From a virus: DNA of 64,000 nt. Under the pieces are notes generated by a model. The model was not told the origin of the DNA. It did not search any database and worked only from the letters and a program-made list of their open reading frames with translations. Below are positions 35,834-57,119 of the stretch, one piece after another. The position numbers and the translations under genes were made by a program. The stretch lies in IMG/VR virus record IMGVR_UViG_3300025122_000006; one strand, 5' to 3'. Each line of letters begins with the position of its first letter. Within the stretch, counting starts at the first letter, position 1.

Positions 35834-36208
35834 TTAATCTCCTTTTTTAATTCTGTAACTGTCTGTGTCAAAATGTTGGGTTGAGAACTCAAAAAGTTCT
35901 GTATCCTCCAGTGCAATCATTTGATGGCGCAATCCACGGTAAACATGAAAATTGTCACCTGGGCCTAATATTCTTTCCTCTGCCACTAGGATGCCGTGTT
36001 CATACATCACATCTCCATCGGAATATCTAACTTTAATTTTTCCAGATTGCACATAAAAAACTTCGTCTTTTAGTTTGTGATAGTGCCACGAGCAACGTTT
36101 TCCTTTTACAAAATATAAAAGTTTCCCACAATATTCTTCGCAGTTAACAATCCACTTTTCAAATCCCCAGCCTTTAGGAACAAATTTAATTGGTAAAGAA
36201 TTCGACAT
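35834..36208 (-). CDS. Cupin (mannose-6-phosphate isomerase / sugar isomerase-like)
   Basis: VPKGWGFEKW, SWHYHKLKDEVFYVQSG, H(V)..G..HQ cupin motifs. Confidence 0.8.
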   Translation of the reverse strand: MSNSLPIKFVPKGWGFEKWIVNCEEYCGKLLYFVKGKRCSWHYHKLKDEVFYVQSGKIKVRYSDGDVMYEHGILVAEERILGPGDNFHVYRGLRHQMIALEDTELFEFSTQHFDTDSYRIKKGD

Positions 36209-36506
36209 CTTTCATTCCTTTATCGTCTACATATATATCTCCGGAGGGTTTACCAAGAAACAACTTGTGATAGTTAACCCCCCATTCTTTTAATTGATTT
36301 TCTGTCAAATTGTAAAATAATCTATGGGCAAAGATCTGAGAGTTATCGGATCTTCCCATGCCTCTAGCGGTTAAAAAATGTATTGTATTGCCTTCTTCAT
36401 ATAGTCTATTAATAACTTTTATTCTATCTTTGAGCGGTTTGGCATTTTCATAATCACCACCCGTTAGGGAACATATTGTGCCATCTATATCAAAAACATA
36501 TGTCAT
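36186..36506 (-). CDS. Small HAD-superfamily phosphatase (capsule biosynthesis phosphatase-like; possible GmhB role)
   Basis: FDIDGTIC, TARG, GKP..DIYVDDK. Confidence 0.8.
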   Translation of the reverse strand: MTYVFDIDGTICSLTGGDYENAKPLKDRIKVINRLYEEGNTIHFLTARGMGRSDNSQIFAHRLFYNLTENQLKEWGVNYHKLFLGKPSGDIYVDDKGMKDVEFFTN

Positions 36507-36898
36507 TGTATATCTCCTAAAATTTTTGTTGTAGAATAATTCCCTATCCTATCAAAAAACGCTAATTCTCCAGCATATTGTTGACCTATAACTTTTTTTC
36601 CTTTCCAATCAGATCCAATCACCATTATATCTGGTTCAGTACTTTTAATTAAATTTGATAATTCCAAGGCGCTGCTGAACACCACTACTTTATCAATATA
36701 GCGTATGCTTTCTAAGGCGAATACTCTATCTTCCAAACAATTAAATGGCCGGAGGTCTCCTTTGTCTTTTTTAACTTTTTCATCAGAATCAATTCCAACA
36801 ATTAAAAAAGTACCAAGAGATTTGGCAAATTTAAATATCTCAAAGTGTCCTCTATGTAAGATGTCAAAACACCCATTTGTCCAAATAGTTTTATACAT
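36503..36898 (-). CDS. rfaE2: Heptose-1-phosphate adenylyltransferase (RfaE domain II / HldC-like)
   Basis: TNGCFDILHRGH, VGIDSD..V...KG..RP, G.YSTT.I. Confidence 0.85.
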   Translation of the reverse strand: MYKTIWTNGCFDILHRGHFEIFKFAKSLGTFLIVGIDSDEKVKKDKGDLRPFNCLEDRVFALESIRYIDKVVVFSSALELSNLIKSTEPDIMVIGSDWKGKKVIGQQYAGELAFFDRIGNYSTTKILGDIQ

Positions 36899-36916
36899 TT
36901 TAAAATAAACTCGTTT

Positions 36917-37384
36917 TTATTTTTTCTTGATTTCTTCTGCGGAATGTTCAAATCCCTGCTCTTTGGCATATTTTATATATTCTTCACCTTGAGGTATTAA
37001 ATTTTCATGCACGATAGGCTGGTCGCATTCGTCCCATGGTTTGGTAAGAAGAGACATACAAGTCGCGCTTGTTATCGCATGAGTCGCATGCGGCACTCCC
37101 TTTGGTGTACGAAAGCAAGTACCTTTAGAACATAACATACTAACTTCTTTCCCGGTTTCTGGGTCTTTAGTTATCATCATAATCGAACCCTCCACAATTA
37201 AAAAATATTCAACAAATTCAGGATGATAGTGGTTCCCTCTTGACTTTCCAGGATGAAAGTGAAGCATGTTGAATTCGCGTATTGGTTCATCCAATACCCA
37301 AGTAAAAATACCGCCACGACCATCTTTTATTGTTGATAGGTTGCAAGTACTAGATAAAATTTCCATATTTCCAAGTTTTCTCAT
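36917..37384 (-). CDS. Cupin, NDP-keto-sugar isomerase/epimerase-like (WxcM/CapF-type)
   Basis: DGRG, RGNHYH...EYF, GVPHA. Confidence 0.7.
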   Translation of the reverse strand: MRKLGNMEILSSTCNLSTIKDGRGGIFTWVLDEPIREFNMLHFHPGKSRGNHYHPEFVEYFLIVEGSIMMITKDPETGKEVSMLCSKGTCFRTPKGVPHATHAITSATCMSLLTKPWDECDQPIVHENLIPQGEEYIKYAKEQGFEHSAEEIKKK

Positions 37385-37387
37385 TTT

Positions 37388-38242
37388 TTATTCCCCAATA
37401 TTATTAATTTTTTTTAAACAAGTTATAATTCCCTCTCTTAAAGGAAATTTAACTTGTTTCGTGAATATTTCACTAGGTTTTAAGTTTAATTGTGTAGGCA
37501 TTCTGCCGGCAATTGGCTGTGTTACCGGAATTAAAAGATCATGTGAATAACCATACGCATCACAAAACATTTTACTTAATTCATACCTGTTAACATAATC
37601 TTCTGACGCGGCATGTATAATCCCTGTTGTTTCTTTTTCTATCACATCTAATATAAATGCGGAAAGATCACTAACATGAGTTGGGCGATTATATACATCT
37701 GTAAAAACTTCAACTTCAGCTTGATTTTCCACACATTCATACAAAAATCTCAAAAAGTTTTTTCTTTCTGGCTTGTCATAGCCATATAACATAGAAGTCC
37801 GTAATATAGAAATTTTATTTATATTACTTTGTCTAAGTAAAAAGTCCTCTGCGTTAGACTTGCTGGTGCCGTAAGCGGTTTCAGGTTCTTTTATATCATT
37901 AATATCCCAGCACATATTCGGGTCACTCTTGAATACACACTCCGTAGAAAGAAAAATAAAATGAACATCAAAAGGTAAATATTGGAGGAGCTTTCTAGTT
38001 GCAAGATAGTTTGTTTGAGCTAGATCTCTTTCATCGCCTTTATAAGACGCAACTAATGCCGCCATATGTATAACAACATCAACAGGACACATTGGAATAT
38101 GCTTACTAATAGACTCATAATCATTAATGTCTTCAAGCAATAAATGAACATTGTATTTTCGACTCTCAATCAAGTCTCTCGTTACAACCTGACCAAGATA
38201 TCCAGTAGCGCCCGTGATTAAAACTGTCTTTTTCATTATCAT
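37388..38242 (-). CDS. RmlD-like NDP-4-keto-sugar reductase (SDR)
   Basis: GATGYLG, STECVF, YGTSK, FTDVYNRPTHV. Confidence 0.75.
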   Translation of the reverse strand: MIMKKTVLITGATGYLGQVVTRDLIESRKYNVHLLLEDINDYESISKHIPMCPVDVVIHMAALVASYKGDERDLAQTNYLATRKLLQYLPFDVHFIFLSTECVFKSDPNMCWDINDIKEPETAYGTSKSNAEDFLLRQSNINKISILRTSMLYGYDKPERKNFLRFLYECVENQAEVEVFTDVYNRPTHVSDLSAFILDVIEKETTGIIHAASEDYVNRYELSKMFCDAYGYSHDLLIPVTQPIAGRMPTQLNLKPSEIFTKQVKFPLREGIITCLKKINNIGE

Positions 38243-39183
38243 TCTCCAATATTATAATATTTTCTGTCATATAGGTTTAATAGTTTGTAAACTTTTATAA
38301 GTTCTTTGACCCCATCTTCCACCGTTTTAGTGGTATCAAATCCTAATTTTTTTATTTTTTCATATGAAACCTCATAATTTCTGTGGTCTCTGTCATAATC
38401 AAAGTTTTCATAATATACAAGACACTTAGTTTCTCTGGAAATAATTTCGCATACATCTTGTTTAGAATAACTCATTTTGTCGGAACCAATATTATACGAA
38501 TTACCAATCATTTTTTTCCATTTTTGAACACCCAGCAAAAAAGATTTTGCCATATCTTGTACGTGGATAAAAGATCTAATAAATTCGGGTTGATAAACGA
38601 CGATATACCCTTGTGTTTGTGCCAAATAGGTTAAATCGTTAACAAGTAAATCTAATCTCAATCTTGGGCTTGTACCAAAAGCAGTTGCAAAACGATAAGA
38701 TATACTATTCTTACGAGACATACAAAGACCTTCTGACTCTGTCTTCGTGATACCATACAAAGAAGTTGGGTTTAAAGGGGAATCTTCATCACATTTTAAA
38801 TTTTTAATTTTCCCGTAATTTGATCCTGTTGAACTATAAAACAACAATTGTTCATCTGACATCGTATCAATCAAAAGCTTGGTTCCTTCTATATTAACTC
38901 TCCTGGCAAGGTCGGGTTTTTTATCACACAAAGGGAAGCCAACTAACGCCGCCAAATGAATTATAATATCTTTTCCTTTCACAACTTCTTTCAGATTTTT
39001 TTTGTCTAAAATATCGCCTCTGATAAAATGAAAATTTTTATTTGAAAAATGAGGAATTAATGGTTGTGGATCATAAGACACATTATCATACACTGTTACT
39101 TCATGCCCTTCGTTTAATAACATGGGTATCAGAACAGATCCAATATATCCGGCACCGCCGGTTATTAAAATTTTATAAAACAT
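38239..39183 (-). CDS. NAD-dependent epimerase/dehydrogenase, Cj1427 (WcaG)-like
   Basis: GGAGYIG, LAALVGFPLC, YGITK, FATAFGTSPRLRLDLLVND. Confidence 0.8.
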   Translation of the reverse strand: MFYKILITGGAGYIGSVLIPMLLNEGHEVTVYDNVSYDPQPLIPHFSNKNFHFIRGDILDKKNLKEVVKGKDIIIHLAALVGFPLCDKKPDLARRVNIEGTKLLIDTMSDEQLLFYSSTGSNYGKIKNLKCDEDSPLNPTSLYGITKTESEGLCMSRKNSISYRFATAFGTSPRLRLDLLVNDLTYLAQTQGYIVVYQPEFIRSFIHVQDMAKSFLLGVQKWKKMIGNSYNIGSDKMSYSKQDVCEIISRETKCLVYYENFDYDRDHRNYEVSYEKIKKLGFDTTKTVEDGVKELIKVYKLLNLYDRKYYNIGE

Positions 39184-39210
39184 TCTCAACTCCGTTTTTA
39201 AATATTATAA

Positions 39211-40041: not shown

Positions 40042-40063
40042 AATATAACTCCTATTAAATTTT

Positions 40064-44450: not shown

Positions 44451-45272
44451 CTATATTTTGTACCCTTCTTGATCACACAACTCTTCATATGAATTCGGAA
44501 TACCTTTAGAAAATCTTCTTTCCCAAACTTCTGGGGCTCTTTTCCAATTGTCATAATGAATTTTTATTCTTTTGGAATAATATGTAGGATTCGAATACAT
44601 TAATTGAAATATTGGAGTGTCATGAGAAACCATAGCGTGGTGTATTGGAGAATGATCCCCTTCTTCGCCCGGGTACCAGGTGGCTATACAGGTGTGTTTT
44701 GGAGGAAAGACAATTTTCCCACCGTCTTTCTGTAGGCGAAACATAAAATCATGTATAGGCTTGTCGATGTATTCATAGTTAATACAATCTAGCCCCCCAA
44801 GTTCTATAAAATAATTTTTATTCATTATACATTGATTTGCAATTTTCCAAGATTGATCAATTCCGGGTAATCTAAAATCACCATGAGTTTTAACTTCCCA
44901 GTATTTGGTTTCCATTTTGTTGCCGCCTTCGCCGTAGATCATGCATACAACATCTTTATAGCCACATTGTTCTTTGTAAGTGTCCATAGCAAGATCAATT
45001 GAATCTTCAGCAAAGACACAATCGTCGACAGTTAAAAAGAACAAATCACTTCTGATCTCTGGCATTCCTTTTTGGGCACATCTAGTAACGGTACCATAAT
45101 CTTTTATGAACAAAACATTTTCTTTATCCCAAAGTTCTTTCGGTGGCTCAAACGGCCCAATAAAAACTATCTCCCAACTGTATCTTTTACAGGCTTGCTT
45201 GACACTTTCGTATACTTTTGGCCACAAAGGTGTACGAAACGCCGGTATAAAAATTGATAAATCGTATTTCAT
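44451..45272 (-). CDS. GT-A (GT2-like) glycosyltransferase, paralog 4 of 4
   Basis: SIFIPAFR, TVDDC, GGLD, GDHSPIH, WKRAPEVWERRF. Confidence 0.7.
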   Translation of the reverse strand: MKYDLSIFIPAFRTPLWPKVYESVKQACKRYSWEIVFIGPFEPPKELWDKENVLFIKDYGTVTRCAQKGMPEIRSDLFFLTVDDCVFAEDSIDLAMDTYKEQCGYKDVVCMIYGEGGNKMETKYWEVKTHGDFRLPGIDQSWKIANQCIMNKNYFIELGGLDCINYEYIDKPIHDFMFRLQKDGGKIVFPPKHTCIATWYPGEEGDHSPIHHAMVSHDTPIFQLMYSNPTYYSKRIKIHYDNWKRAPEVWERRFSKGIPNSYEELCDQEGYKI

Positions 45273-45808
45273 TTAATAGCCTCCACATTTAAACTCATTA
45301 ATTTTCCGTTTTCCTTATCCATATGAGGATAGTAAGTCTGAGAATAATCGTCAACATGAAAATGCTCCGTATCTCCCCAATCGTATCTATTTATATCACG
45401 AAACCCAACGGTTGTCAAGTCTTCTTTTAATTTTTTATAATCCCATCCGTTTTTATGATAATCATACGAGTGTTTTTGGCTTCCCCAAAAAGTTGAATGA
45501 AGCAACCTTAAATTCTTATGATAATAGTAATGTGCAAAGTGCGCTTCCATATCTGGTACTGCCAATCTCAAAACGCCACCGGGCTTTAAAATTTTATACC
45601 ATCTTTTTAGAGCCTTTTCAGATTCGATATAATCTGCATGTTCTAAAACATGACAAGCGTATATAAGATCTACTGATTCGTTTTCGAACTTGTTTAATTT
45701 GAAAACATCGTCAACAATATCTGGGCTTACATCCTCCCTAATATCGATGTTTATAAATCCATATATTTTTCTATCGTAACAGCCCAAATTTAATTTTACG
45801 CTATTCAA
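45269..45808 (-). CDS. Class I SAM-dependent methyltransferase
   Basis: LNLGC, INID, HVLEH, ILKPGG..RLAVPD. Confidence 0.8.
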   Translation of the reverse strand: MNSVKLNLGCYDRKIYGFINIDIREDVSPDIVDDVFKLNKFENESVDLIYACHVLEHADYIESEKALKRWYKILKPGGVLRLAVPDMEAHFAHYYYHKNLRLLHSTFWGSQKHSYDYHKNGWDYKKLKEDLTTVGFRDINRYDWGDTEHFHVDDYSQTYYPHMDKENGKLMSLNVEAIK

Positions 45809-46761
45809 GTTATCCTCCTGTAGTGGTCCAAAAGAAATTCAACACTTTCATCAATTGAATATTTTGGTTTCCACCCAGTTTTTTTTATAAATTTAGATAC
45901 ATCTGGTATTTGCATTGTTACATCCACAGGCCTTAACAACCTCTCATCAACTTCAGATTTAATCGAAACAGAAGATTTAGATTTTAAAATATCTAAAAAT
46001 TCTCCCACAGTTGTAACGGCTTCCCCACCAACATTATAAGGAACTCCATAGTCACAATGCTGACAAGCAACCCAATAAGATTCCATGGCGTCCCTAGCAT
46101 CTATAAGTGTTCGAACTGAATTTAAATTACCATGGGTTAATATCCTTCTCTTGCCCTGTTCAATTTCCACTATTTTTCTTGCGAAAGCGCTTGAAAAAAT
46201 ATCTCCCCTCCTTGGATTTATATAAGCAAACATTCTAGTTATGACTACTTTCATCCCATAAGAATAAAAATAAGAACTGGCTATTTTTTCTTGTGTCAAT
46301 TTTGAAACAGCATAAATATTAACCGGCTCTAGTGGAGCCTCTTCTGTTATAGGAGTGTTTTTAACATCTACTAAGCCATAAACTTCCGATGTCCCACAAA
46401 ACTGTATTATCGGATCGATACCCACTATCCTAATAGCCTCAAACAAATTAATTGTATTACTAATGTTGTTTTGTAAAACAGCTATCGGATTTGAAAAACA
46501 TACGTGAACATTAGCATGAGCAGCAAGATGAAAAATATAATCTGGCCGGGCGGCTTGTAGTGCCCGGATTGTTGCACTCAAGTCTGTTAGATCACATTCA
46601 TGCATTTTAATTTTATGTGAAATTCCTTTCAAATTTGAATTTGAAGTTGTACTGTGCCACCTTGAAATACCATGAACTTCTAGATCAGTATTGTTCAACA
46701 AAAATTCTGCCAAATAACTACCACCACTACCAGCGATTCCTGTTATTAATGCTCTTTTCAT
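45805..46761 (-). CDS. gmd: GDP-mannose / GDP-manno-heptose 4,6-dehydratase (DmhA/DdahA-like)
   Basis: ALITGIAGSGGSYLAEFLL.NTD, SEVYG, YAVSK, GNLNSVRTLIDARDA, LRPVDV. Confidence 0.8.
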   Translation of the reverse strand: MKRALITGIAGSGGSYLAEFLLNNTDLEVHGISRWHSTTSNSNLKGISHKIKMHECDLTDLSATIRALQAARPDYIFHLAAHANVHVCFSNPIAVLQNNISNTINLFEAIRIVGIDPIIQFCGTSEVYGLVDVKNTPITEEAPLEPVNIYAVSKLTQEKIASSYFYSYGMKVVITRMFAYINPRRGDIFSSAFARKIVEIEQGKRRILTHGNLNSVRTLIDARDAMESYWVACQHCDYGVPYNVGGEAVTTVGEFLDILKSKSSVSIKSEVDERLLRPVDVTMQIPDVSKFIKKTGWKPKYSIDESVEFLLDHYRRIT

Positions 46762-47754
46762 TTATTTTCCTCTAACAAATGCATGTTGGATTTTATCATA
46801 ATCAAGAATTTCTTTACTCAAAAACAAATTATTTTTAATAAACTCTTTTAATCTATCATCGATACTAAATCCATTTTCATCAAATTGATTTACATCATGA
46901 ACCAAAAACGTTTTATCATCTGGTACGTCCATTTTATGAGCAAATCTAGGAACCCACTCTTCATGACCAAAACCGCAGGCTGCAGCTTCCGGACTTTCTA
47001 CTATTTCTTTAACGCTTTTACACCCGGGATATACAATATCCCAACCAGCTCCAAACACTTGAGTCTGTCCATCTAATCCTTGATGCATTCCCTTATTGGT
47101 GCCATGGTAGCACATTACGTCATTTGCTATAACAAATCTTTGTTTGACTGCCGCGGCAAGAAAAGAAAACGACGATTCAGAACAGTAGGAAACAAAAATA
47201 TCTGGTAATGGACGCCCATACTCTTTGAGTATTTTATTAGAAAAGACAGCACAATGTAAATTTGCTGTGGATCCTAACGGAACGACAAAATCTTTTTCTC
47301 TACCAAAAACATCCCAGATATTTTGGCTTTCATCAAAGTCAAACCACCAAAAATAACCGTTGTCCTTATCTATTTCGGGGGATACAATTCCGTTTTCTTC
47401 ATTTAGAATTCTGTTGTTTAATTTTGCCAAAGAAGTTAAATCATCTGTAAATCTTACATCAGAGGCTACATAAACATATCCATCAAATTCCCCAAACTCT
47501 TGAATGCCCTTGAGAACAGCGTGATTGAAAGATTGGTTAACGGCTAGCTTCTCATTCGTAAAATAGTAACTTATTCTATCCCCAAAAGCTTCATAAACTT
47601 TTTGAAAAGTTTTTTTACTTACAAAACAACCAGAAAATATAACTCTTTTATCTTCAAAGTTCTGATCAAGAATAGAACTGATATGTTCAATATATGTGGA
47701 AGAGTTTTCTCTCCCCGAGAGGCCACAAGTATTATATACAATCATTAAGGACAT
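46762..47754 (-). CDS. Putative GT-A glycosyltransferase (second paralog family)
   Basis: VYNTCGLSGRE, VNQSFNH, YVASD, PDIFV.YC.ES; paralog of 47758..48690. Confidence 0.55.
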   Translation of the reverse strand: MSLMIVYNTCGLSGRENSSTYIEHISSILDQNFEDKRVIFSGCFVSKKTFQKVYEAFGDRISYYFTNEKLAVNQSFNHAVLKGIQEFGEFDGYVYVASDVRFTDDLTSLAKLNNRILNEENGIVSPEIDKDNGYFWWFDFDESQNIWDVFGREKDFVVPLGSTANLHCAVFSNKILKEYGRPLPDIFVSYCSESSFSFLAAAVKQRFVIANDVMCYHGTNKGMHQGLDGQTQVFGAGWDIVYPGCKSVKEIVESPEAAACGFGHEEWVPRFAHKMDVPDDKTFLVHDVNQFDENGFSIDDRLKEFIKNNLFLSKEILDYDKIQHAFVRGK

Positions 47755-47757
47755 CTG

Positions 47758-48690
47758 TTATCTCACAAATTTATATTTAAGTTTATCATAATCAAAAGTC
47801 TTTTTATTCAAAAACATATTGATTCTAATAAATTCTTTGAGTCTTTCCGGAACTTCCACAAAACCATCTTTATATTTTTCTCTGTCATGCGGGAAAACTC
47901 CCTGCATCTCTTCGTATCCAAAGCCGCTGTCCCAAGCTTCTGGTTGTTTGACTATCTCTCTTATATCCAGCCCACCGAATAGATTATTTGTACTATCCCC
48001 CCTTGGGCCAATATGATGAAACCCACTAGTGGCTCCATCAACACTTTTAAGGTGTTCTAAGACCAAATCTTTCATAATAATCCATTTTTGAGAAACCCCA
48101 GCGGCTACAAACGAAAATACCGATTCTGTGCAATATGCTACAAAAATATCAGGAATTATTTTTCTATCGTAAGCTTTAAAAATTTCATTAGAAAATAATT
48201 GTGTGTGCAAATTACATGCTCTTCCGATTGGAATTTCAAAATGCTCATCTACTATATGCCCCTTTATATTAAACCATGGTCCAAAACCCGTATCGTTACT
48301 CGCTTGCAAAGTGACCATACCGTAGGGACCAGATTTGTACAAATCCCAAGTATCTTTTAAAGTATAGATATTGTCTCTAAAGTTTATTCCGGAATCCACA
48401 TACAAATAAGAATCAAATTCATCAAATTGGTCAACACATTTTTGCACAGTATGATTAAAAGATTGGTTTACTGTTATTCTTTCATTTGTAAAATTAAAAG
48501 ATACCCTTCCTTTGAATTCTTGTACTAATCTTTTCACTACTCTTAAAGAATTGCCACAGCTTGAAATAACCACATGAAACCCATCAAATTGTTGTTTTAG
48601 GATATTATTGACACAATCAATATACCACTCAACACTTTCTCTACCAGAAAAACCGCAAGTATTATAAACAACTAAAATCTTATTTTTCAT
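47758..48690 (-). CDS. Putative GT-A glycosyltransferase (second paralog family)
   Basis: VYNTCGFSGRE, VNQSFNH, YVDSG, PDIFVAYCTES. Confidence 0.55.
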   Translation of the reverse strand: MKNKILVVYNTCGFSGRESVEWYIDCVNNILKQQFDGFHVVISSCGNSLRVVKRLVQEFKGRVSFNFTNERITVNQSFNHTVQKCVDQFDEFDSYLYVDSGINFRDNIYTLKDTWDLYKSGPYGMVTLQASNDTGFGPWFNIKGHIVDEHFEIPIGRACNLHTQLFSNEIFKAYDRKIIPDIFVAYCTESVFSFVAAGVSQKWIIMKDLVLEHLKSVDGATSGFHHIGPRGDSTNNLFGGLDIREIVKQPEAWDSGFGYEEMQGVFPHDREKYKDGFVEVPERLKEFIRINMFLNKKTFDYDKLKYKFVR

Positions 48691-49219
48691 TATAAAAATC
48701 ACCCCATTCTACCAATATAGTGCTTCTACCATCTGTCCTATTATATGCTTTATAATACGCTGGAAATATATCTTCTGGTTCGTCTAATCTAATAACTTCA
48801 ATAGTACTTAACATGTGTTTAAATGCTTCAGTAAAGTCTCCGGAATGTTGAGTTTGAGGATCTAAAGGCCTAACGGATCCTATGCCCGTCCTTATAATAA
48901 CTTTTGGAGTAAATTGTCCATCCGTATAAACGGGATATTTATCCAAATGGTTTACTAATTGATTTGCCGCCAATAATAAAAAATTCCATCTAGGATAAAT
49001 ACTAATGGGAACTAAGCCACCAACCGCTAAACCATTTGTTATACCCATTTGCATTTCTTCATTAACCGGCATTTCAATTAATTTATCTCTAGATATTTTT
49101 CCAAGTGTGTTGGTCATCGCAGTGCCTTTATATTCAACTGCTTGACCCAAAAATACTGTATCTTCCTGTTTTCCAAGATAAGTCATCGCTTTTTCTAATT
49201 CATTGAAATATTTTCCCAT
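48680..49219 (-). CDS. TPP-dependent E1-beta / transketolase pyrimidine-binding subunit (short form)
   Basis: VFLGQAV, EMPVNEEMQMG, NQLVNH, PQTQHS; 179 aa, lacking the C-terminal domain. Confidence 0.8.
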   Translation of the reverse strand: MGKYFNELEKAMTYLGKQEDTVFLGQAVEYKGTAMTNTLGKISRDKLIEMPVNEEMQMGITNGLAVGGLVPISIYPRWNFLLLAANQLVNHLDKYPVYTDGQFTPKVIIRTGIGSVRPLDPQTQHSGDFTEAFKHMLSTIEVIRLDEPEDIFPAYYKAYNRTDGRSTILVEWGDFYNEK

Positions 49220-49228
49220 TCTTTCCTC

Positions 49229-49840
49229 TTAAAATTGAACTCTTGTCCCCGCACCAGCGTGAGGATATTTATCTAAATTATATTTGTAATATGTAATGTA
49301 TTCATCATTAACCCCTTCGTAAGTCATCTTCTCCAGAGCCCAAGTTGCTTTCGTATCAGTGCATACAGATTTGCCATTATCTTCAATAATAAAATGAATA
49401 GGTAGTTTATGGTTTCTAGCATATTTAATACATTCGTGTGCTGCTCCTGTCTCGGAAGTCATTTCTCCCATGAAGCAATAAACTTTATTGGTTCCGCCCG
49501 ACCTTTTTATGCCGAGAGCCAAACCTACCGAAACAGATAATTGACCTGTCACGATTCCAGAACATAAAACTCGTTGTTCTTTGAAGCCTAAAGAAATTGA
49601 TCTTCCCTGCAAGATAGACTTTTTTAATTCTTCTTTCGGGACACCTTTTAATAAGCATTGATAATGACTCCTCCAAGAACACAAAACCCAATCATCTTTA
49701 CTAATTTTATGTTTTTTAAAAATATCAATCATTTGCTCTTCATTGCCATGATATAAATGAACTGGTGCCTTAATTAACGCATTATTAAAGCATTCTGCTA
49801 TTTCATTTTCGAATTCAATTAATTCTTCTTTAGTCATCAT
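49229..49840 (-). CDS. TPP-dependent E1-alpha-like subunit (short form)
   Basis: PVHL..GNEE, WRSHY..LLKG, MGEM..ETG...IIEDN TPP-binding motif, PHAG. Confidence 0.8.
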   Translation of the reverse strand: MMTKEELIEFENEIAECFNNALIKAPVHLYHGNEEQMIDIFKKHKISKDDWVLCSWRSHYQCLLKGVPKEELKKSILQGRSISLGFKEQRVLCSGIVTGQLSVSVGLALGIKRSGGTNKVYCFMGEMTSETGAAHECIKYARNHKLPIHFIIEDNGKSVCTDTKATWALEKMTYEGVNDEYITYYKYNLDKYPHAGAGTRVQF

Positions 49841-49841
49841 T

Positions 49842-51356
49842 TTAATCACCTAAAATTTTTCTTTTTAATTTATGATCACACATCTTAACAATCCCATCAC
49901 GAGTTTCTTTTCCAAATTTATTTTCAATGGAATTCAAATATCTTTCGTCTTCGTGATAATTGTTAAATGCGGCATCCCTAAATTTTACCACTTCTGCCGC
50001 GGAAATATATTTGGTATCAAGTGGACGCATATTATAGGAATGCTGAGAATAGCCAACATAAGAATCTGGCAATGTTAAACTCTCTTTAAGTGCCTCTAGA
50101 TACAATTTAGACCCTGGATATGCCATCGAACAATAAAAATTTGCAAATTCACAATTCAAATCTTTTGCCAAATCTAGAGTCTCTTGCATAGTTTCCAGGT
50201 TGTCTTCGGGTAAACCAAAAATATAATTACCAATTACATTTATACCAGCATCTTGAATTTGTTTTACTAAATCTTTAATGTTAACTTCGGTGAATTTTCC
50301 TTTGATAACATCTTTTCTAACGACTTTATTGCCCGACTCAATTCCCAATGCTAACCATTCAACGCCAGCTTTTTTCAAAGTTTCTAAATAAGATTCTTTT
50401 ACTGTATCAATTCTTGCATATGCCCAGATATTAAAATCGTATCCTCTATCGACTATATTGTCACATAATTTCATGAAATGATTTTTGTTCAAAACGAACA
50501 TCTCATCAGCAATTTTTACATTCCTAATTCCCATTTCAGCAATCTTATCAAATTCAGTTATCATGAAATCTGGATCCCAAAATCTAAACTTATTTCTTCC
50601 ATAATCCCAATTTTCAATATTATTGTTCCCAAAAGGAGCATTAATGCAACAAAAACTACATCTAAAGGGGCACCCAAGGCTCGTATACAAAGACGCAAAA
50701 GGAGCGGTATCATTATCATTAGACATTGCATGCCAGTTGGAAGTTCTATATTTTTCCATAGGAAGAAGATCCCAGGCTACACCGGGAAGTTCATGCTGTA
50801 GTTGGTCTTGTGTGATTAAAGGAGCCGGTCTTGTAAAACAAATTTTACCTTCATCCCTATACCATAGTCCTGGTACTTTTCTTAATTGTGTTGAGTCTTC
50901 TAAATCACTAATTTGCAAAAGAGCAGTGATCGTTCTAGGGCCTTCTCCTTGGCAAACAAAATCGGCTTTTTCATCTTGCATTGTTTTTCGCGAAGTCGCC
51001 GATGGATAGAGACCAGTCAACAAAACTTTTAGACTTGGGTTTATTTCTTTTAAAAATTCCATACAATCATGTACACCTTGCATATTTTGAGTTGAAGCCG
51101 ATGGTTGTTGTCCATAGACCACAAACACAGTTAATTTTGGATTTAATTTATTAATCCTCATGGCACTTTCAAACGAAGAAATACCTTCCGCTTCACAATC
51201 CAAAATTAGTGTATTATGGTATCCAGCCGATCTTAAGTGATTAGCCAGCAAACCAGCCCAAATTGGAGGCTCAATTGCAGATAAATTTTTACTTAAATCT
51301 TGATAAACTTTTTCTGATGCGTTGGGATGCACAAATAATACATCTAATTTATTCAT
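49842..51356 (-). CDS. Cobalamin-dependent radical SAM enzyme (class B methyltransferase-like)
   Basis: N-terminal B12-binding domain (EPP.W.GLLA), CPFRCSFC, GIESG, YPGS.LY; AGGAG RBS before 51356. Confidence 0.85.
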   Translation of the reverse strand: MNKLDVLFVHPNASEKVYQDLSKNLSAIEPPIWAGLLANHLRSAGYHNTLILDCEAEGISSFESAMRINKLNPKLTVFVVYGQQPSASTQNMQGVHDCMEFLKEINPSLKVLLTGLYPSATSRKTMQDEKADFVCQGEGPRTITALLQISDLEDSTQLRKVPGLWYRDEGKICFTRPAPLITQDQLQHELPGVAWDLLPMEKYRTSNWHAMSNDNDTAPFASLYTSLGCPFRCSFCCINAPFGNNNIENWDYGRNKFRFWDPDFMITEFDKIAEMGIRNVKIADEMFVLNKNHFMKLCDNIVDRGYDFNIWAYARIDTVKESYLETLKKAGVEWLALGIESGNKVVRKDVIKGKFTEVNIKDLVKQIQDAGINVIGNYIFGLPEDNLETMQETLDLAKDLNCEFANFYCSMAYPGSKLYLEALKESLTLPDSYVGYSQHSYNMRPLDTKYISAAEVVKFRDAAFNNYHEDERYLNSIENKFGKETRDGIVKMCDHKLKRKILGD

Positions 51357-51363
51357 AATTCTC

Positions 51364-52293
51364 CTAGTAATTTGCGAACCAAGGCGATTCAATAATTTCA
51401 TATGCTTTCATTAATTCTTTGATACCAGTATCAAGATCATTTTCACAAGTGAAACCTTTGTCATAAATCTTTTGGCTACTAACAACATAATCTCTAGTAT
51501 CAGGATCAGAATTGAATTCAGCCTTAATAACCTCCAAAGGAATGTGTCTTTGAATTGTTTTTGCAAGTTGTAATTTGTTCATGTTGATTTCATCATGGCC
51601 AACATTATAAGTTTCATTTTTGCATTGTTCCCAATTATCTAAAACAAATTTAAACGATCTACAAGCATCTTGAATATGCAAATAATTCCTCATAAATTCA
51701 CATTCATATAAAACCAAAACCCTTTCTCGCAAAGCTTTTAGGACAAAATTATTAACTAATAGGTCCGTTCTCATTCTAGAAGAGGGGCCAAAAACAGTTG
51801 CAAATCTAAATGTCACATGATTTTCCACTTCTTTGTAGGCTTTCTCTGCCTGCACTTTTGTGACTCCGTACAAGGAAATAGGATTTAATTCGGATTCTTC
51901 GGTACACACGCCATTACCGGTTCCGTATCCAGAATTTGTACAAGGATAAATAACTATTTGATCTTTCGATTTATTATCGGCAATCCACTGATTTACTTCG
52001 TAATTGATTTCTTTTGCCCCTCTTTTATCTCTATCGCATAGGGGAAAACCAACTAGTGCTGCCAATGGAATTATAATATCTGCTTTTGATACATATTTTT
52101 TTAAAAGATTAATGTTTCTAACATCTTCTTTTACAAAATTAAAATTTGAACACGTAGTATATCGCAATAAAGAAGTGCAATCATACATTAAATTATCTAA
52201 ACAGGTGACTTCATAGCCATCACCTAATAAATGCGCAGTGAGTTCACTACCGATATACCCAGCTCCGCCCGTAATTAAAACTTTTTCTCTCAT
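51364..52293 (-). CDS. NAD-dependent NDP-heptose dehydrogenase/epimerase, Cj1427 (WcaG)-like
   Basis: GGAGYIGS, ADIIIPLAALVG.PLC, IYPCTNSGYG, CTEES.L.PIS.YG..K, RMR.DLLVN.F, DPD.RDY.VS, C-terminal FANY. Confidence 0.85.
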   Translation of the reverse strand: MREKVLITGGAGYIGSELTAHLLGDGYEVTCLDNLMYDCTSLLRYTTCSNFNFVKEDVRNINLLKKYVSKADIIIPLAALVGFPLCDRDKRGAKEINYEVNQWIADNKSKDQIVIYPCTNSGYGTGNGVCTEESELNPISLYGVTKVQAEKAYKEVENHVTFRFATVFGPSSRMRTDLLVNNFVLKALRERVLVLYECEFMRNYLHIQDACRSFKFVLDNWEQCKNETYNVGHDEINMNKLQLAKTIQRHIPLEVIKAEFNSDPDTRDYVVSSQKIYDKGFTCENDLDTGIKELMKAYEIIESPWFANY

Positions 52294-52595
52294 CACCACT
52301 CCAGTTTTCCAGTTACAATATCTTTGAGCATTATCCAATCACATGCTTTTGCCCATGCTGGTCTCGAGAAAGCAGCGGGAATGTTTTTTTCAAAAAAATA
52401 ATGCCCTGACCACGCAAAGGGATAAACAACAAAAGGCGCCAATAACAGCAAAGCCCAAATCTGTGTTAATATGGTGCCTATAATAAATATAATTGTTACT
52501 AGTTGACCTAAAACATGTAAACGACGAGTCCATTTATTCTGATGTAATGTTAAATAGTATTCATAATATTCTTTAAATGTCAAGTTATTATTCAT
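52293..52595 (-). CDS. DUF962 / Mpo1-like membrane protein
   Basis: YYL.LHQN..TRRLH..G, FAWSGHYFFEKN.PAAF. Confidence 0.85.
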   Translation of the reverse strand: MNNNLTFKEYYEYYLTLHQNKWTRRLHVLGQLVTIIFIIGTILTQIWALLLLAPFVVYPFAWSGHYFFEKNIPAAFSRPAWAKACDWIMLKDIVTGKLEW

Positions 52596-52995
52596 CCCAA
52601 CTAATCTCCCAATCTTTAAATTCTGCCGCCAAGCAGTCTATCTTATAATCTTTGCGACCGCCAACTTTTTCTTGTATTCTATTCTTTGCTGTGTTTCTGA
52701 TTCCATTTAGGCCGTGAGTTAATTCTAAGTTATTTCCATCTCTAATTCCTTTACGATAATTTGATTCATTGTGCCAAATGTGTAAATTCATTTGAGAGAG
52801 TACGACGATGGATCGAATTAATTGAGCATCGATTACTTTGCTTTCTGAGAGCAAAATATCAATGTCATGGCAAATATCCGAAATTTCTTTAGCGTATTCT
52901 TCTTTATGATTAGGGATAAAAACCTCTTTCAACTGGACTATAGATAATCTATCTACTAGTTCGGATAATGTCGGTAAATATTTTCTTTTTTCCAT
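52588..52995 (-). CDS. Hypothetical protein (DUF4254/DUF6165-like helical bundle)
   Basis: ELVDRLSIVQLK and NLHIWHNE..R...LNGIR motifs; GGAGG RBS. Confidence 0.5.
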   Translation of the reverse strand: MEKRKYLPTLSELVDRLSIVQLKEVFIPNHKEEYAKEISDICHDIDILLSESKVIDAQLIRSIVVLSQMNLHIWHNESNYRKGIRDGNNLELTHGLNGIRNTAKNRIQEKVGGRKDYKIDCLAAEFKDWEISWDE

Positions 52996-52996
52996 T

Positions 52997-54625
52997 TCAG
53001 CCTCCTACAAATTGATCGAAATATGGTTTAAATAGGGAATAATTATCCCCAAAAAGATTACGATATTCATAAAAGATCCTAGCTTCTTCCCTTTTTTGTT
53101 CAAGATTATCATCAGAACTAGATCTACCCCCAGAATAATATAAGCCCACCACTTCATCAATTTTCTTGAACCTGCTTCCATTAGAAACACTTCGGAGCCA
53201 CATTTCCCAATCATCTGCATAGTTGCACCTTTCAGAATCAAAAAACCCATATTTATCATGTATATTTCTTCTCCAAAGAGGCATGGGGCCTGGCAGGCAT
53301 TTTATCATGTTTTCCTTTGAAAATGGAAATCTAGAGTGATCAAACAACATACTATTTGACGAATTTTCTTCAAATTTTTCATTTGCGACTTCTGTACAAT
53401 AAACATCTCCATACACTAAATCGATTGTTGTATCATCTTTCATATTATTATAAAGCACTTCCAGACAATCGTTTCTTTTTACATCATCAATAAAGGCAAA
53501 AGTTACATATTCCCCATTGGATAGCTCCAGAGCTCTGTTCAAGCAAGGTGTAATCGCTTCTTTTTCTTCCAATCTTTTATAAACTATATTATCAAATTTT
53601 TTCAAATATTTTTTAATTAGTTCGGACTCCCCTCTGTAAGACCCAGCATCAATTATTATTAACTCACAATCATTAAAAATGGTTTGATTAGTTATGTTTT
53701 CTAAAAAATTATTTAGAAAACCTTTTCCTTCATGAAAGGTTGTGATAATTGAAACCAAAGGGTTTCTTTTTTCTTCTAAATCGCGTTTGTATAACCGCTC
53801 AATAATAGAAATAATTTCAGACCTTTTTTTATACATAAATTCAATAAGCTCTTCGCCTTTTAAGCTGAACCACTCTTCAGAGGCGGCTCCCGCTAAATTA
53901 TTTGTAATAACAGAGCACCCCATCATCCTAGCTTCAACCAATATCCTAGATAAAGTTTCTGGTGTTTTTGGTAAAAAAAGAAATTTGGAATTTGATCCAA
54001 GTTTTTCTAGAAATTTAAAATAATTGGGATCAGAAATTAATTCATATTTTAAATCTTTGGATGAGCAATAGCGTATAGCCCCTAAAGTGTTTTTGTGTTC
54101 GATATCAGATTCCATTATTGAAATTTTATCTGTTTGTTTTTGCATCTTAGATATTTCCTTCATTTTGTGCAAACTATCCTTAGACCACAAATTTCCTCCC
54201 AAATTAATTACGTTATCAAGTTTCAAGTTTTTTTCAATTATTTCTTTATGAAATTTTGATTGACAAAGCACAGCCATCGCATTTTTATAAAAATAAAAAT
54301 TAATCAAATTTTTTGGAGATGCCTTAAAGTCTCTATAAGTTGCTGGGTTTCTTGATTTTAAATACTTATGATCATGCTCGTATATTAAATACCTTAAGTT
54401 CATTAACACCTGTCGACATTCATTAGAAAGATTAATATAATTAGATACAATAAAAAACGCATTTTTATTAGAATTTATTAATCTTTTTGTAACAAGATGA
54501 GATTGTGTTTTGTCAACTTTATAACCTCCATTTCTTAATTCCAAAATTAATTCTTCATTATTTAATTCTCCACCACCAAGAATATGTTCAGTAAAAAAAT
54601 CAGCTATAAAAATAATTTTTTTCAT
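52997..54625 (-). CDS. Two-domain glycosyltransferase (GT-B-like N-terminal + GT2 C-terminal)
   Basis: GGGELN; PETLSRILVEARMMGC; VSIITT...ELIIIDAGS...FIDD...ADDWEMWLR. Confidence 0.8.
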   Translation of the reverse strand: MKKIIFIADFFTEHILGGGELNNEELILELRNGGYKVDKTQSHLVTKRLINSNKNAFFIVSNYINLSNECRQVLMNLRYLIYEHDHKYLKSRNPATYRDFKASPKNLINFYFYKNAMAVLCQSKFHKEIIEKNLKLDNVINLGGNLWSKDSLHKMKEISKMQKQTDKISIMESDIEHKNTLGAIRYCSSKDLKYELISDPNYFKFLEKLGSNSKFLFLPKTPETLSRILVEARMMGCSVITNNLAGAASEEWFSLKGEELIEFMYKKRSEIISIIERLYKRDLEEKRNPLVSIITTFHEGKGFLNNFLENITNQTIFNDCELIIIDAGSYRGESELIKKYLKKFDNIVYKRLEEKEAITPCLNRALELSNGEYVTFAFIDDVKRNDCLEVLYNNMKDDTTIDLVYGDVYCTEVANEKFEENSSNSMLFDHSRFPFSKENMIKCLPGPMPLWRRNIHDKYGFFDSERCNYADDWEMWLRSVSNGSRFKKIDEVVGLYYSGGRSSSDDNLEQKREEARIFYEYRNLFGDNYSLFKPYFDQFVGG

Positions 54626-55857
54626 TCATACTCCTTAATAATATCCTCTATTTCACCCAGCCAATTATCATCATTCTCATATACGCAATTAACAAAATTT
54701 TCAAATAATTTTTCATCACTAAAATTTTCATTAATTATTTTTTTTAATTCTAATGCTGTCTTTTTTGCTTTATCGTAGTTTTTCCAAGTCTTTCTTAACA
54801 TCATCTTATACGATCCCTGGTCTGCATGTGCCCACATTGAATCTTGTTGGATTACTCCCTCCCATATTGCTTCTGGTTGTACCGGGGCTAAAGAATATTT
54901 TACTTTTTGAAAATAATCCTTCTTATTATGTCTCAGAAAATCTAGCTGCCCAGACCAAGATATTGTAATAACGGGCAATCCTTCTCTGGCAGCTTCGTAC
55001 AAAGGTAATCCGAAACCTTCTCCATGTGCTATATTAATTATTGATTTAATTTTTTCATGATTATATAACCAAGTCATTTGACCACTAGAAAGATCACCGT
55101 GAAGAAGATAAACTTTGCATTTTCTATCTGGATATTGTTTCATAAACATTGATAATGAACCTTCTACCTGTTGTTTGTCCATAATAGAATTGCTTTTAAT
55201 ATTTGTTTTAACTACAAGCCCAACTTCTTGATCTATAAACTCTTCAACCCACCATTTAATAGAATTTGTAAAGTTCTTTCTAGGTCCCATTTGTGATACA
55301 ATTAAAAAATTAAAATCATAAACTAACTGAAACTCATTAATCTCTTCTGGGCTTGTTCTAGGTGTGTTTTCCCAAACAACTTCAACGGGTTTTTCAAGCT
55401 TATAAGGAAACTGTTCTCCTGTATTGTTGTTTACAGCCGTAACCATGGTCTTTTTATAAGTATTTTTTGCATGATTGGAAACGACAAGAATCTTATCCAT
55501 ATCATTTCCTTTTTGAAGCCAAATAGGTGCCACTTTATTAGTTTCAATACCCGCCGTATAACCAATGTTAACAGGACAAATTTTTTCAAATTCATTAGGG
55601 ATTGTAATTTGTAAACTAATATCTGGTGTTAATTTTTTTTCCTGAACTAGTATCTGAGTCTGTATAATTTTATCATCCACCCATCGACGAAACTCATCAT
55701 CCTCCCAAACCCAACCAGTTTCTCCCCAAGGGATGGGTTGGATATAAATATCAAATAAATCTTCTCTTGATCTTAAAGCTCGTAATGCAAACCTAGCTTG
55801 CTCCCCATAGCCAGATTGGGAAAGAATCGGACCTCTTACAAATATTTTTTTTATCAC
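54622..55857 (-). CDS. GT4-family glycosyltransferase
   Basis: SGYG..AR, RKN, HGEGFGLPLYEAA..GLPVI. Confidence 0.85.
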   Translation of the reverse strand: MIKKIFVRGPILSQSGYGEQARFALRALRSREDLFDIYIQPIPWGETGWVWEDDEFRRWVDDKIIQTQILVQEKKLTPDISLQITIPNEFEKICPVNIGYTAGIETNKVAPIWLQKGNDMDKILVVSNHAKNTYKKTMVTAVNNNTGEQFPYKLEKPVEVVWENTPRTSPEEINEFQLVYDFNFLIVSQMGPRKNFTNSIKWWVEEFIDQEVGLVVKTNIKSNSIMDKQQVEGSLSMFMKQYPDRKCKVYLLHGDLSSGQMTWLYNHEKIKSIINIAHGEGFGLPLYEAAREGLPVITISWSGQLDFLRHNKKDYFQKVKYSLAPVQPEAIWEGVIQQDSMWAHADQGSYKMMLRKTWKNYDKAKKTALELKKIINENFSDEKLFENFVNCVYENDDNWLGEIEDIIKEYE

Positions 55858-57119
55858 GCTATCTCCTTAAATGTAATACTATTATATCCTTTTCTTGTGG
55901 ACCAAGAACCTTGTTCTTCATGCAAATCTAACATTAACTTCACCCATTTACTTTTAAATTCTGTAAAATTATAATTCTCCAAAACATGCTGCCTACCTTC
56001 TTTTCCCATTTGTAAACGAGCATCCTCACCCATATCATATAAATTATTTAAGGCAGATAAGAAATGTTCCTTACTAACTCTATCTTCATAAATATATGGA
56101 ACTTCTTGAGAGCCTATAATAACTTTGGATACAGGAAATAAGGGAACACCAAACTGTTTTCCTGGAGCGATTACTTGTTCCTGTAAGCCGCCGGTAACCG
56201 TCGCTATAATTGGAGTCCCGCAAGAAAGAGATTCTAGAGTAGATAACCCAAAACCTTCTGCGTCTGATATATTGACGGTAACATCAACTAAATTATAAAA
56301 TTGGGGCATTTTCTCTAATGGAACCTTTGTTGTAGAAAATAAAACCTGTCCGGCATCTAAACCCAATTCCTCAACAATATGAATTAAATCCTGCCCGTGG
56401 GAATCCTTGGGATCGGTATGCATTATTAATTGAGCTTTGTCGTGCAAATCTCTCTTATCTAGCCATTCTTTAAACCACCATATTAATGTACCAGATTGTT
56501 TTCTACGAGCATTTCTGTTGTTCCAAAAAATTATAAATTTATCAACGTCTTTATCAGAAATGCTCGATTGACGAAAAGCTTTTCTTTGCTCTTTACCTAT
56601 GCGTGTAAACAAACTACTGTCAACTGCATGAGGTAAATAAGTACATTTTACTTCAGGAGCCACGTTTCTTACAACATCTTCAGTTAATTTAGATATAGCC
56701 ACAACAAGATCGTTCGATAAATAAAATTGACGATTAAAATTTGGATATGGATAGTTATCCCAAACATGATAATAAACAATTGGACAAAGAGGCCTGATTT
56801 CATTCTCAATCATCCATAACCATCCGTAAAATCTTGGATCAGTCATAATCCATAGTATATCTGGCTTTTCGTTTCTCAACAAAGACCTTATCATATCTTG
56901 AGTACCATAGCCGTCAACGGGAAAAATTCTCCATTCTTCCGCCCAAGGCTCTACTGACATTGGCTCATAATTATTGTGTTTAATAGCTCCTCCTAATGAA
57001 ATAACCTCAAATTTACCAGATTCTAGAAGAGCCTCACAAACATAACGAGTTTGAGTGCCGACACCAGATGGACTTAATGGGTGATCACCTATAGTTAAAA
57101 CTTTGATTTTTTTAGACAT
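55854..57119 (-). CDS. GT4-family glycosyltransferase
   Basis: SGVGTQ, NRNARRK, AEGFGLSTLESLSCGTPII; AAGGAG RBS. Confidence 0.85.
   Translation of the reverse strand: MSKKIKVLTIGDHPLSPSGVGTQTRYVCEALLESGKFEVISLGGAIKHNNYEPMSVEPWAEEWRIFPVDGYGTQDMIRSLLRNEKPDILWIMTDPRFYGWLWMIENEIRPLCPIVYYHVWDNYPYPNFNRQFYLSNDLVVAISKLTEDVVRNVAPEVKCTYLPHAVDSSLFTRIGKEQRKAFRQSSISDKDVDKFIIFWNNRNARRKQSGTLIWWFKEWLDKRDLHDKAQLIMHTDPKDSHGQDLIHIVEELGLDAGQVLFSTTKVPLEKMPQFYNLVDVTVNISDAEGFGLSTLESLSCGTPIIATVTGGLQEQVIAPGKQFGVPLFPVSKVIIGSQEVPYIYEDRVSKEHFLSALNNLYDMGEDARLQMGKEGRQHVLENYNFTEFKSKWVKLMLDLHEEQGSWSTRKGYNSITFKEIA

Follow-up and report, generated by a model that had tools for sequence, protein, structure and literature searches.

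A soluble 21-kb sugar and glycosyltransferase locus in an uncultured marine myophage, with the distal tail proteins as candidate acceptors

We analysed a stretch of 64,000 nucleotides from the IMG/VR virus record IMGVR_UViG_3300025122_000006, hereafter the window, and in it a 21-kb locus, or island (35834-57119, minus strand), which encodes glycosyltransferases (GTs) together with enzymes that make activated sugars. The gene content supports a machinery which is soluble and self-contained, and our favoured though tentative reading, to which we give somewhat less than an even chance, is that it O-glycosylates the virion at its distal tail, with a pair of GT4 enzymes starting the glycans and an exchangeable cassette extending them. 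The original prediction had proposed virion glycosylation by this locus, and it stood up with respect to the soluble machinery, the improbability of DNA as the acceptor and a motif excess in tail proteins, while its argument for a cytoplasmic acceptor and its linking of the motif to the whole locus did not. All long open reading frames (ORFs) of the window lie on the minus strand. Baseplate wedge genes were identified with PHROGs (gp25-type, 24136-24537; gp6-type, 22338-24134); the locus had been described as lying beside them, but they begin ~11 kb downstream and are not adjacent. Since gp6 is only ~30% identical to its best cultured relatives, Flavobacterium phage vB_FspM_immuto (immuto) and Microcystis phage Mel-JY01, with a 484-kb uncultured phage also among the best at ~30% identity, we take the source of the window to be an uncultured, distantly T4-like marine myophage, whose contig measures ~141 kb. 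Identity as a T4-like cyanophage or pelagimyophage was rejected, as the match to cyanophage S-SSM7 covers 144 bp only and gp6 stands at the ~30% already mentioned.

The locus consists of 26 co-oriented, contiguous ORFs, which overlap or are separated by gaps of at most 22 bp. Nine of them are GT-like, in keeping with the number first proposed, as judged by Pfam and, for six Pfam-negative ORFs, by AlphaFold2 (AF2) and Foldseek:

55854..57119, minus strand: GT4a, 421 aa, a retaining GT-B enzyme at the head of the locus (Pfam Glycos_transf_1, 1e-11)
54622..55857, minus strand: GT4b, 411 aa, a divergent GT4 which always adjoins GT4a (weak Pfam GT4 matches)
52997..54625, minus strand: GT2, 542 aa, with a C-terminal GT-A domain (residues 293-458, Pfam) and a 285-aa N-terminal domain
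46762..48702, minus strand: X314 and X330, tandem paralogs of GT-A fold, family A2 (AF2/Foldseek)
44451-45272, 42750-43538, 41964-42749 and 39211-40041, minus strand: family A1, four GT-A paralogs of 273, 262, 261 and 276 aa (alignment, AF2/Foldseek)

The best solved relative of GT4a is B736L of chlorovirus NY-2A (3oy2; E 3.5e-10, residues 6-314 against 2-310); it also matches BshA, GlcN-PG synthase and MGlcDAG synthase weakly and SdgA marginally (E 6e-4). Its syntenic orthologs are found in immuto, in Mel-JY01 and in two of the related IMG/VR contigs (G001 and G002), and in immuto and Mel-JY01 the GT4b ortholog adjoins it. GT4a-like genes also occur in two other phages, within the head module in cyanosiphovirus S-CBS4 and alongside the packaging genes in TJE1. 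Known enzymes that glycosylate proteins in the cytoplasm include GtfA/GtfB and SdgA/SdgB, which are GT4 O-glycosyltransferases of Ser repeats, and TibC and AAH, of the autotransporter heptosyltransferase (BAHT) type, use ADP-heptose. In the first of these pairs GtfB is an inactive partner, whereas the EX7E catalytic motif (EGFGLxxxE) is intact in both GT4a and GT4b, and we therefore rejected a pairing of the GtfA/GtfB type. The analogy with autotransporter heptosyltransferases drawn in the original prediction failed as well, as no match to GT9/BAHT (PF01075) was obtained among the 26 ORFs at E<=0.01 and no TibC-type enzyme is present.

The N-terminal 285 aa of GT2 gave no Pfam, PDB or paralog match. 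For families A1 and A2 structures were predicted with alignments of metagenomic homologs. X314 and X330 are 43% identical to each other, and neither has a Pfam match; the A2 model (pLDDT 86.5) was matched by Foldseek to TarP, TarS and SpsA with probability 1.0, and the family has 470 metagenome clusters at E<=0.001, mostly marine. The four A1 paralogs, which have a C-terminal NW..W.RRF in common and no Pfam match, gave a model with pLDDT 92.3 and Foldseek matches to WrtF, AvpGT and TarS (probability 1.0, E 1e-11). Family A1 turns up often both in IMG/VR contigs and in marine metagenomes (256 metagenome clusters at E<=0.001, most of them marine and a few with PF00535). It had no tblastn match in 50,697 GenBank phage records, and a pattern-limited search of 185,579 species genomes did not detect its signature motifs. 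The ~260-aa GT paralog family of cyanophages P-SSM2 and S-SCSM2R was considered as a possible identity for A1 and rejected on the same tblastn result. The GT4b-like atlas clusters are 100% viral, and families A1 and GT4b, together with the small protein u135 described below, look virus-restricted in these searches.

The broad toolbox for nucleoside diphosphate (NDP)-sugars, which the original prediction had read from the letters, could be named by Pfam and NCBIfam, and includes four extended short-chain dehydrogenases/reductases (SDRs), two cupins and an RmlD-like reductase. The features inside the locus, followed by two which lie upstream and outside its coordinates, are:

52588..52995, minus strand: u135, a conserved small virus-only protein, 70-83% identical across islands, including one on an unrelated backbone (G003)
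52293..52595, minus strand: Mpo1-like/DUF962 protein, 100 aa (PF06127, 3e-29)
48680..52338, minus strand: modifying block of an SDR (324 aa), a B12-binding radical S-adenosylmethionine (SAM) protein (519 aa) and thiamine pyrophosphate (TPP) E1-alpha-like (206 aa) and E1-beta-like (179 aa) proteins
45805..46761, minus strand: GDP-mannose-4,6-dehydratase (Gmd)-like SDR, 318 aa (PF16363, 5e-67; TIGR01472, 2.5e-46, below cut-off)
45269..45808, minus strand: SAM-dependent methyltransferase, 179 aa (Pfam)
43510-44448, minus strand: Fcl-like epimerase/reductase, interleaved with the A1 paralogs
40801-41967, minus strand: RfbH/ColD-like pyridoxal phosphate (PLP) 3-dehydrase, interleaved with the A1 paralogs
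40064-40804, minus strand: HldE-domain-I-like heptose kinase (TIGR02198, 98 bits, cut-off 345)
36917..39189, minus strand: SDR (316 aa), RmlD-like reductase (284 aa) and WxcM/FdtA/WbcJ-C-like cupin (155 aa)
35834..36898, minus strand: heptose activation genes, namely an HldE-domain-II-like adenylyltransferase (131 aa), a mini-HAD phosphatase (106 aa) and a cupin (124 aa)
63239-63961, minus strand, upstream: eukaryotic-type phosphomannomutase (PF03332, 1.8e-40)
62054-62497, minus strand, upstream: second cytidylyltransferase-like protein (PF01467, 1.3e-12)

The adenylyltransferase matched TIGR02199 at 6e-33 (114 bits, cut-off 181.5) and the phosphatase TIGR01689 at 2e-9. Because the nucleotidyltransferases present are of the HldE/cytidylyltransferase type only, with no RmlA/ManC-type enzyme in five relatives, ADP-heptose is most likely the entry point made by the phage. 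A SIS-domain GmhA gave no match in the locus or in the five relatives; the conserved 124-aa cupin, which weakly resembles cupin sugar isomerases, may substitute for GmhA, or the enzyme of the host may be used. The four-gene module of cupin, HAD phosphatase, adenylyltransferase and kinase is common to cyanophage S-SSM7 at 38-65% amino acid identity. We note that in S-SSM7 (NC_015287, 109.0-111.8 kb) the GenBank labels 'phosphoheptose isomerase' (SSSM7_130) and 'cysteine dioxygenase' (SSSM7_131) are doubtful, the homologs of these two genes here being the mini-HAD phosphatase and the small cupin, respectively. From the Gmd-, ColD/RfbH- and Fcl-like enzymes we would expect 6-deoxy and 3,6-dideoxy products, either on heptose or on mannose supplied via the phosphomannomutase, which together with the second cytidylyltransferase-like protein may feed a mannose-derived branch; these two genes were not detected at the equivalent position in G001. 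The block of SDR, radical SAM and TPP genes, present in nearly all related islands, is a candidate for C-branching or alkylation of a keto-sugar, and the TPP pair, radical SAM protein and methyltransferase, taken together, suggest C-branching with methylation. We infer the sugar identities and the order of the GTs from these assignments, and exact products are predicted below equivalog cut-offs. The u135 protein has no PDB match, only viral hypothetical clusters.

None of the membrane parts of a surface-polysaccharide pathway was found in the locus. No Pfam match to the Wzx, Wzy, ABC, PGT or Gtr families, nor to an initiating polyprenyl-phosphate sugar transferase of the WecA/WbaP type, was obtained among the 26 ORFs, and a hydropathy scan revealed the Mpo1/DUF962 protein as the sole one with a strongly hydrophobic segment (Kyte-Doolittle maximum 2.43 at residues 35-53), so that both methods agree with the original prediction. 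Export machinery outside the locus, which the prediction had named as a finding that would speak against it, was judged from the contigs of five island-bearing relatives (G001-G005). Wzx (PF01943) was absent from all five, two of which are >90% complete, in a search whose control was positive in 13 of 14 genomes, and no polytopic transporter-like ORF was seen by hydropathy scan in G001, G003 and G004 read whole. A 409-aa protein of G004 with three hydrophobic segments was rejected as a candidate, since it lies 65 kb from the island of that contig and is not transporter-like. With no Wzx in five contigs and no polytopic ORF in three, phages of this group do not, as far as their contigs tell, carry the membrane half of such a pathway, although the parts of the host could be used.

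The candidate acceptors are encoded downstream of gp6:

486..22341, minus strand: five distal tail/baseplate proteins (449, 393, 1659, 1826 and 527 aa)

In these five proteins the motif [S/T]-[G/A]-S occurs at 7-25 sites against 1.4-4.6 expected from shuffles, a 5- to 8-fold excess (z = 4.8-10.2), while no excess was seen in the enzymes, gp6 or a 2404-aa protein (z about 0). The sites are scattered and stand in non-repetitive context. The window and its orthologs in G001 have 65 and 65 sites, of which only 19 fall in the same column, and the 1659-aa pair has none in common; the number of motifs is kept while their positions turn over. Each of the five proteins has one such site within its first 23-42 residues. 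The excess recurs in the post-gp6 proteins of all five phages with the GT4a/GT4b pair (the window, G001, G002, immuto and Mel-JY01) and is absent from T4 gp34-37, from the S-SSM7 fibre and from all proteins of G003 and G004, the two island-bearing phages without the pair. In immuto the major capsid protein has z = 1.7, the excess sitting on distal tail proteins and not on the capsid. Thus the motif tracks the GT4 pair, or its lineage, and not the whole 21-kb locus, because G003 and G004 have the core of sugar genes with neither pair nor motif. The sequon-rich virion proteins named as acceptors in the original prediction hold in so far as the excess is real and recurs with the pair, but the link is not to the whole locus and is confounded by ancestry; the co-occurrence check it had called for likewise came out in five of five phages with the pair and none of two without, though the pair coincides with one backbone.

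Two layers could be told apart when related islands were compared. A search with family A1 yielded 21 IMG/VR loci with the same kind of island, of which G001 (147 kb) is syntenic with the window, running from an exonuclease through the island to the tail genes. The order exonuclease-GT4a-GT4b is kept, at ~30% identity, in immuto and Mel-JY01, whose hosts belong to different phyla; in immuto it lies at 48.0-51.9 kb, ahead of an 11-kb island whose sugar genes differ, and in Mel-JY01 it is followed by a 6.5-kb island of GTs and a methyltransferase only. The GT4a ortholog of Mel-JY01 (PP395634, 83441-84932) is annotated as two ORFs (83441-84013 and 84024-84932), a division which may be real or may stem from a frameshift or a sequencing error. 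The sugar core, on the other hand, made of the 324-aa SDR, the B12 radical SAM protein, TPP alpha and beta, the methyltransferase, the Gmd-, ColD- and Fcl-like enzymes, the heptose kinase, u135 and several A1 paralogs, recurs in many contigs with its order and content shuffled. G003 (138.9-154.6 kb) and G004 (81.4-100 kb) carry it with up to five A1 paralogs, and have no detectable structural proteins, gp6 or GT4b in common with the window; since the core recurs in such unrelated backbones, it behaves, judging from these contigs, as a mobile cassette. In G003 the core borders on a series of very large structural proteins, which are encoded on the other strand. Between the window and G001 the sugar enzymes are 70-80% identical, as against 22-48% for the tail proteins.

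Transcription of the locus was considered from its promoter elements:

57148..57176, minus strand: host-type sigma70 promoter TTGACA-N17-TATATT with a TGT extended -10, followed by an AAGGAG ribosome-binding site and the ATG of GT4a
59981-60009, minus strand: second, near-identical promoter TTGACA-N17-TGTGTTATATTATAA (strict pattern search)

The first sits in an 83-bp gap 5' of the first gene, which agrees with the earlier description of about 25 contiguous, co-oriented genes behind one sigma70 promoter. On the coding strand, only two sites in 64 kb fit the strict pattern, both intergenic and both with TGTGTTATATTATAA; because the pattern is rare and the two sites share this box and this placement, the island promoter is a credible phage early promoter of the host sigma70 type, and being host-type and early-looking it argues against placing the locus in a late virion operon. 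Internal late promoters were unsupported, as TATAAATA, CTAACTA and TATTTAAAA had no consistent placement inside the island, and terminator-like sites were no commoner than in shuffles.

Taken together, we propose a membrane-independent phage glycan factory built of two evolutionary layers. The first would be the lineage-conserved head of exonuclease, GT4a and GT4b (with GT2), found also in the cultured relatives with smaller islands, and the second a horizontally exchanged cassette which would make activated rare sugars, the six GT-A enzymes stringing them together. Three routes are predicted: ADP-heptose through the HldE-like kinase, the mini-HAD phosphatase and the HldE-like adenylyltransferase, with a cupin isomerase possibly replacing GmhA; 6-deoxy and 3,6-dideoxy derivatives through the Gmd-, ColD/RfbH- and Fcl-like enzymes; and C-branched or methylated forms through the TPP E1 pair, the B12 radical SAM protein and the SAM methyltransferase. 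Because the island is under a host-type early promoter, enzymes and sugar pools would be ready before the virion proteins are made. We infer a protein acceptor: the most likely role of the two GT4 enzymes, catalytically intact at motif level, is to begin O-glycans on Ser/Thr residues of the distal tail/baseplate proteins rich in [S/T]-[G/A]-S while these are in the cytoplasm, and the GT-A enzymes would extend these into a strain-variable coat at the host-recognition end of the particle. In its widest form the proposal would hold that a widespread group of T4-like phages from aquatic habitats, whose hosts range from Bacteroidota to Cyanobacteria, O-glycosylate their particles autonomously in the cytoplasm, the GT4 pair writing the first sugars on [S/T]-[G/A]-S and interchangeable 'serotype' cassettes, which pass even from one phage to an unrelated one, extending them with virus-specific branched deoxy-heptose glycans from phage ADP-heptose, to give a tail coat variable like O-antigens; this we regard as possible and rather doubtful.

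Several points weigh against glycosylation of the distal tail. So far, none of the proteins of this group of phages has been seen to carry a glycan. The GT4 pair and this phage backbone coincide exactly, so that the association of motif and pair is not phylogenetically independent and shared ancestry could explain it, and the sugar core is found in G003 and G004 without the motif. Every match of the heptose module lies below the curated NCBIfam cut-offs, although the family assignments are clear. The promoter is early and host-type, not late. The GT-A enzymes have their closest folds among proteins whose acceptors are linked to lipid or polymer (O-polysaccharide for WrtF; teichoic acid for TarS, TarP and RmlT), and GTs without transmembrane segments are equally expected for lipid-linked glycans, for which host carriers and exporters could be used. 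The step from soluble GTs to a cytoplasmic protein acceptor, on which the original prediction had leaned, therefore fails, because the elongating GTs of O-antigen and teichoic acid synthesis are soluble too and are the closest folds. Published readings of similar islands, moreover, favour modification of the host O-chain (PMC7029224, PMC12801897).

The strongest alternative, which we still consider unlikely, is remodelling of the host envelope, in which phage enzymes would build a new or altered O-antigen, capsule or other lipid-linked glycan on host undecaprenyl-phosphate and the host would bring it to the cell surface with its flippase or ABC exporter and its ligase, so that superinfection is blocked or progeny are kept off infected cells and debris. 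Heptose, colitose-like and 6-deoxyhexose pathways, like the nearest GT folds, belong to the synthesis of O-antigen, capsule and teichoic acid, in which elongating GTs can do without a transmembrane segment; an early promoter of the host type suits a takeover of the host; the neighbours PhoH, phosphomannomutase and fatty-acid hydroxylase are auxiliary metabolic genes; the mobile sugar core occurs in backbones without the tail motif; and this is the published reading of both the pelagimyophage (PMC7029224) and the cyanophage (PMC12801897) islands. However, the initiating transferase, flippase, polymerase, ABC exporter and ligase are all absent from the locus and from the relatives' contigs read whole, and a foreign glycan made by nine GTs would need to be accepted by host exporters. 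The GT families look virus-restricted and not borrowed from host loci, one and the same GT4 head is used by phages of both Bacteroidota and Cyanobacteria, two groups with different envelopes, and no lytic phage has been shown to remodel its host in this manner.

Some other cytoplasmic acceptor, be it a glycolipid, a small-molecule glycoside or a host protein, we regard as quite improbable; GT4-made glycolipids, for instance, might replace phospholipids and free phosphate during infection. The weak matches of GT4a to glycolipid and thiol-sugar synthases point in this direction, as do the adjacent PhoH and the B12 radical SAM, TPP and PLP tailoring typical of natural-product deoxysugars. A short protein of the fatty-acid-hydroxylase family (PF04116; 60011-60430, minus strand) lies upstream of the island, and together with the Mpo1-like protein, of the 2-hydroxy fatty acid dioxygenase family, it gives a hint of a link to lipids or glycolipids. 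Nonetheless, the hydroxylase is not conserved in G001, no aglycone-building genes are present, a simple glycolipid would need far fewer than nine GTs, and the motif excess of the tail proteins would be left unexplained.

Phage DNA glycans have as their known prerequisites a hydroxymethylase, or a C5-methyltransferase together with Tet/JBP. Hypermodification of the phage DNA, with the GTs placing heptose or oligosaccharides on hydroxymethylated pyrimidines so that restriction is escaped, is highly improbable, because the DNA of immuto, which has an orthologous island headed by GT4a/GT4b, was digested to dA, dC, dT and fdPreQ1 only (PMC10516641) and the relatives lack a route to 5-hydroxymethylcytosine, with thymidylate synthase/hydroxymethylase (PF00303) absent in G001, G002, G003 and G005 and Tet/JBP (PF12851) and C5-methyltransferase (PF00145) absent in all five island-bearing contigs. 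Early expression would fit this alternative, and the heptose module (HAD, kinase, cytidylyltransferase-like) with a GT-B enzyme resembles the contig-53 cluster among the DNA glycan clusters of Pyle et al. (bioRxiv 10.1101/2023.12.21.572611), where 5-heptosyl-hydroxymethylcytosine is made by HAD/kinase, cytidylyltransferase and GT-B proteins and where TarP is the top fold of the GT-A DNA transferases, as it is of family A2. Against this, GT4a and GT4b have no PDB match to T4 beta-GT, and nine GTs with many sugar-tailoring enzymes exceed any known DNA glycan; the absence of the hydroxymethylcytosine route sets the relatives of the window apart from T4 with its alpha- and beta-GT and from the clusters of Pyle et al. 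alike.

Among the remaining genes, PIN-PhoH and the exonuclease are the upstream neighbours of the island, and a separate common box, AAACTAACTA, stands 5' of PhoH (61814) and of a 99-aa signal-peptide protein (58497). A 221-aa protein (59291-59956, minus strand) matches zinc-metallopeptidase families below threshold (M90; anthrax lethal-factor-type domain, E 7.6e-5); we take it for a probable small peptidase of the zincin-like kind, driven by the second early promoter. Between the island and the 2404-aa protein, a 433-aa protein (32778-34079, minus strand) with a C-terminal M15/VanY-type peptidase domain is a likely tail-associated cell-wall hydrolase. The phosphate-transporter label of a 317-aa 'PiT-like' membrane protein (57203-58156, minus strand) is weak, as its PHO4 match has E 0.14 only, and no relatives of it were found in the species genomes. 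The window has no tRNAs.

To our knowledge, virion glycosylation by phages has been shown only for a few mycobacteriophages, with a handful of GTs, and the sugar islands of marine myophages have been filed as 'LPS (lipopolysaccharide) genes' without any test. If glycosylation of the distal tail is true, the receptor-binding apparatus of abundant ocean phages would be covered with glycans that vary between strains, which would bear on host range, particle stability, grazing, stickiness and recognition by antibodies and lectins. It would also give a function to hundreds of virus-only GT families, and reveal a new biosynthetic use of ADP-heptose along with a sugar-branching route by TPP and B12 radical SAM enzymes. 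As this GT4 head is also found in two cultured phages, immuto and Mel-JY01, the question is open to direct bench tests.

The locus can finally be set beside systems already known. Loci for O-antigen or capsule of the Wzx/Wzy or ABC type likewise have NDP-sugar genes and several peripheral GTs, but no initiating transferase, flippase, polymerase or exporter was found in the locus studied here. In marine T4-like myophages, sugar or 'LPS' islands lie in the host-recognition cluster, as described for pelagimyophages (PMC7029224) and for P-SSM2, S-SSM7, S-SCSM1 and S-SCSM2R (PMC12801897). They are alike in being large, variable blocks of NDP-sugar and GT genes with rfaE/HldE-type genes, close to tail/baseplate genes and without exporters; the window differs in its backbone (~30% to any cultured phage), in family A1, which has no GenBank phage match, and in the TPP/B12 radical SAM core and the conserved GT4a/GT4b head, which are not known to have been described. 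Virion O-glycosylation of mycobacteriophages, known from Che8, Corndog and Myrna, is summarised in PMC12363180 and PMC12619734; there too, soluble GTs encoded by the phage are proposed to act in the cytoplasm and to modify structural proteins of the phage itself. Those phages use few GTs, host sugar donors and the C-termini of capsid and tail-tube proteins, as against 26 genes, own sugar synthesis and, as the candidate target, a tripeptide scattered over distal tail proteins in the window, and neither GT4a nor GT4b matched a mycobacteriophage, the source of the GTs Che8 gp110 and Corndog gp38, at E<=1e-5 (tblastn, 50,697 phage records). Giant viruses (chlorovirus Vp54 and mimivirus fibril glycans; PMC9614988, PMC4691112) also combine virus-encoded NDP-sugar synthesis with soluble GTs, and they glycosylate virion proteins without host membrane machinery. 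GT4a is homologous to chlorovirus B736L/A546L, but the host of a giant virus is eukaryotic, B736L has no assigned acceptor and no sugar pathway has been shown in common. Marine myophage sugar islands, mycobacteriophage virion glycosylation and the autonomous glycosylation of giant viruses are the known relatives of the system described here.

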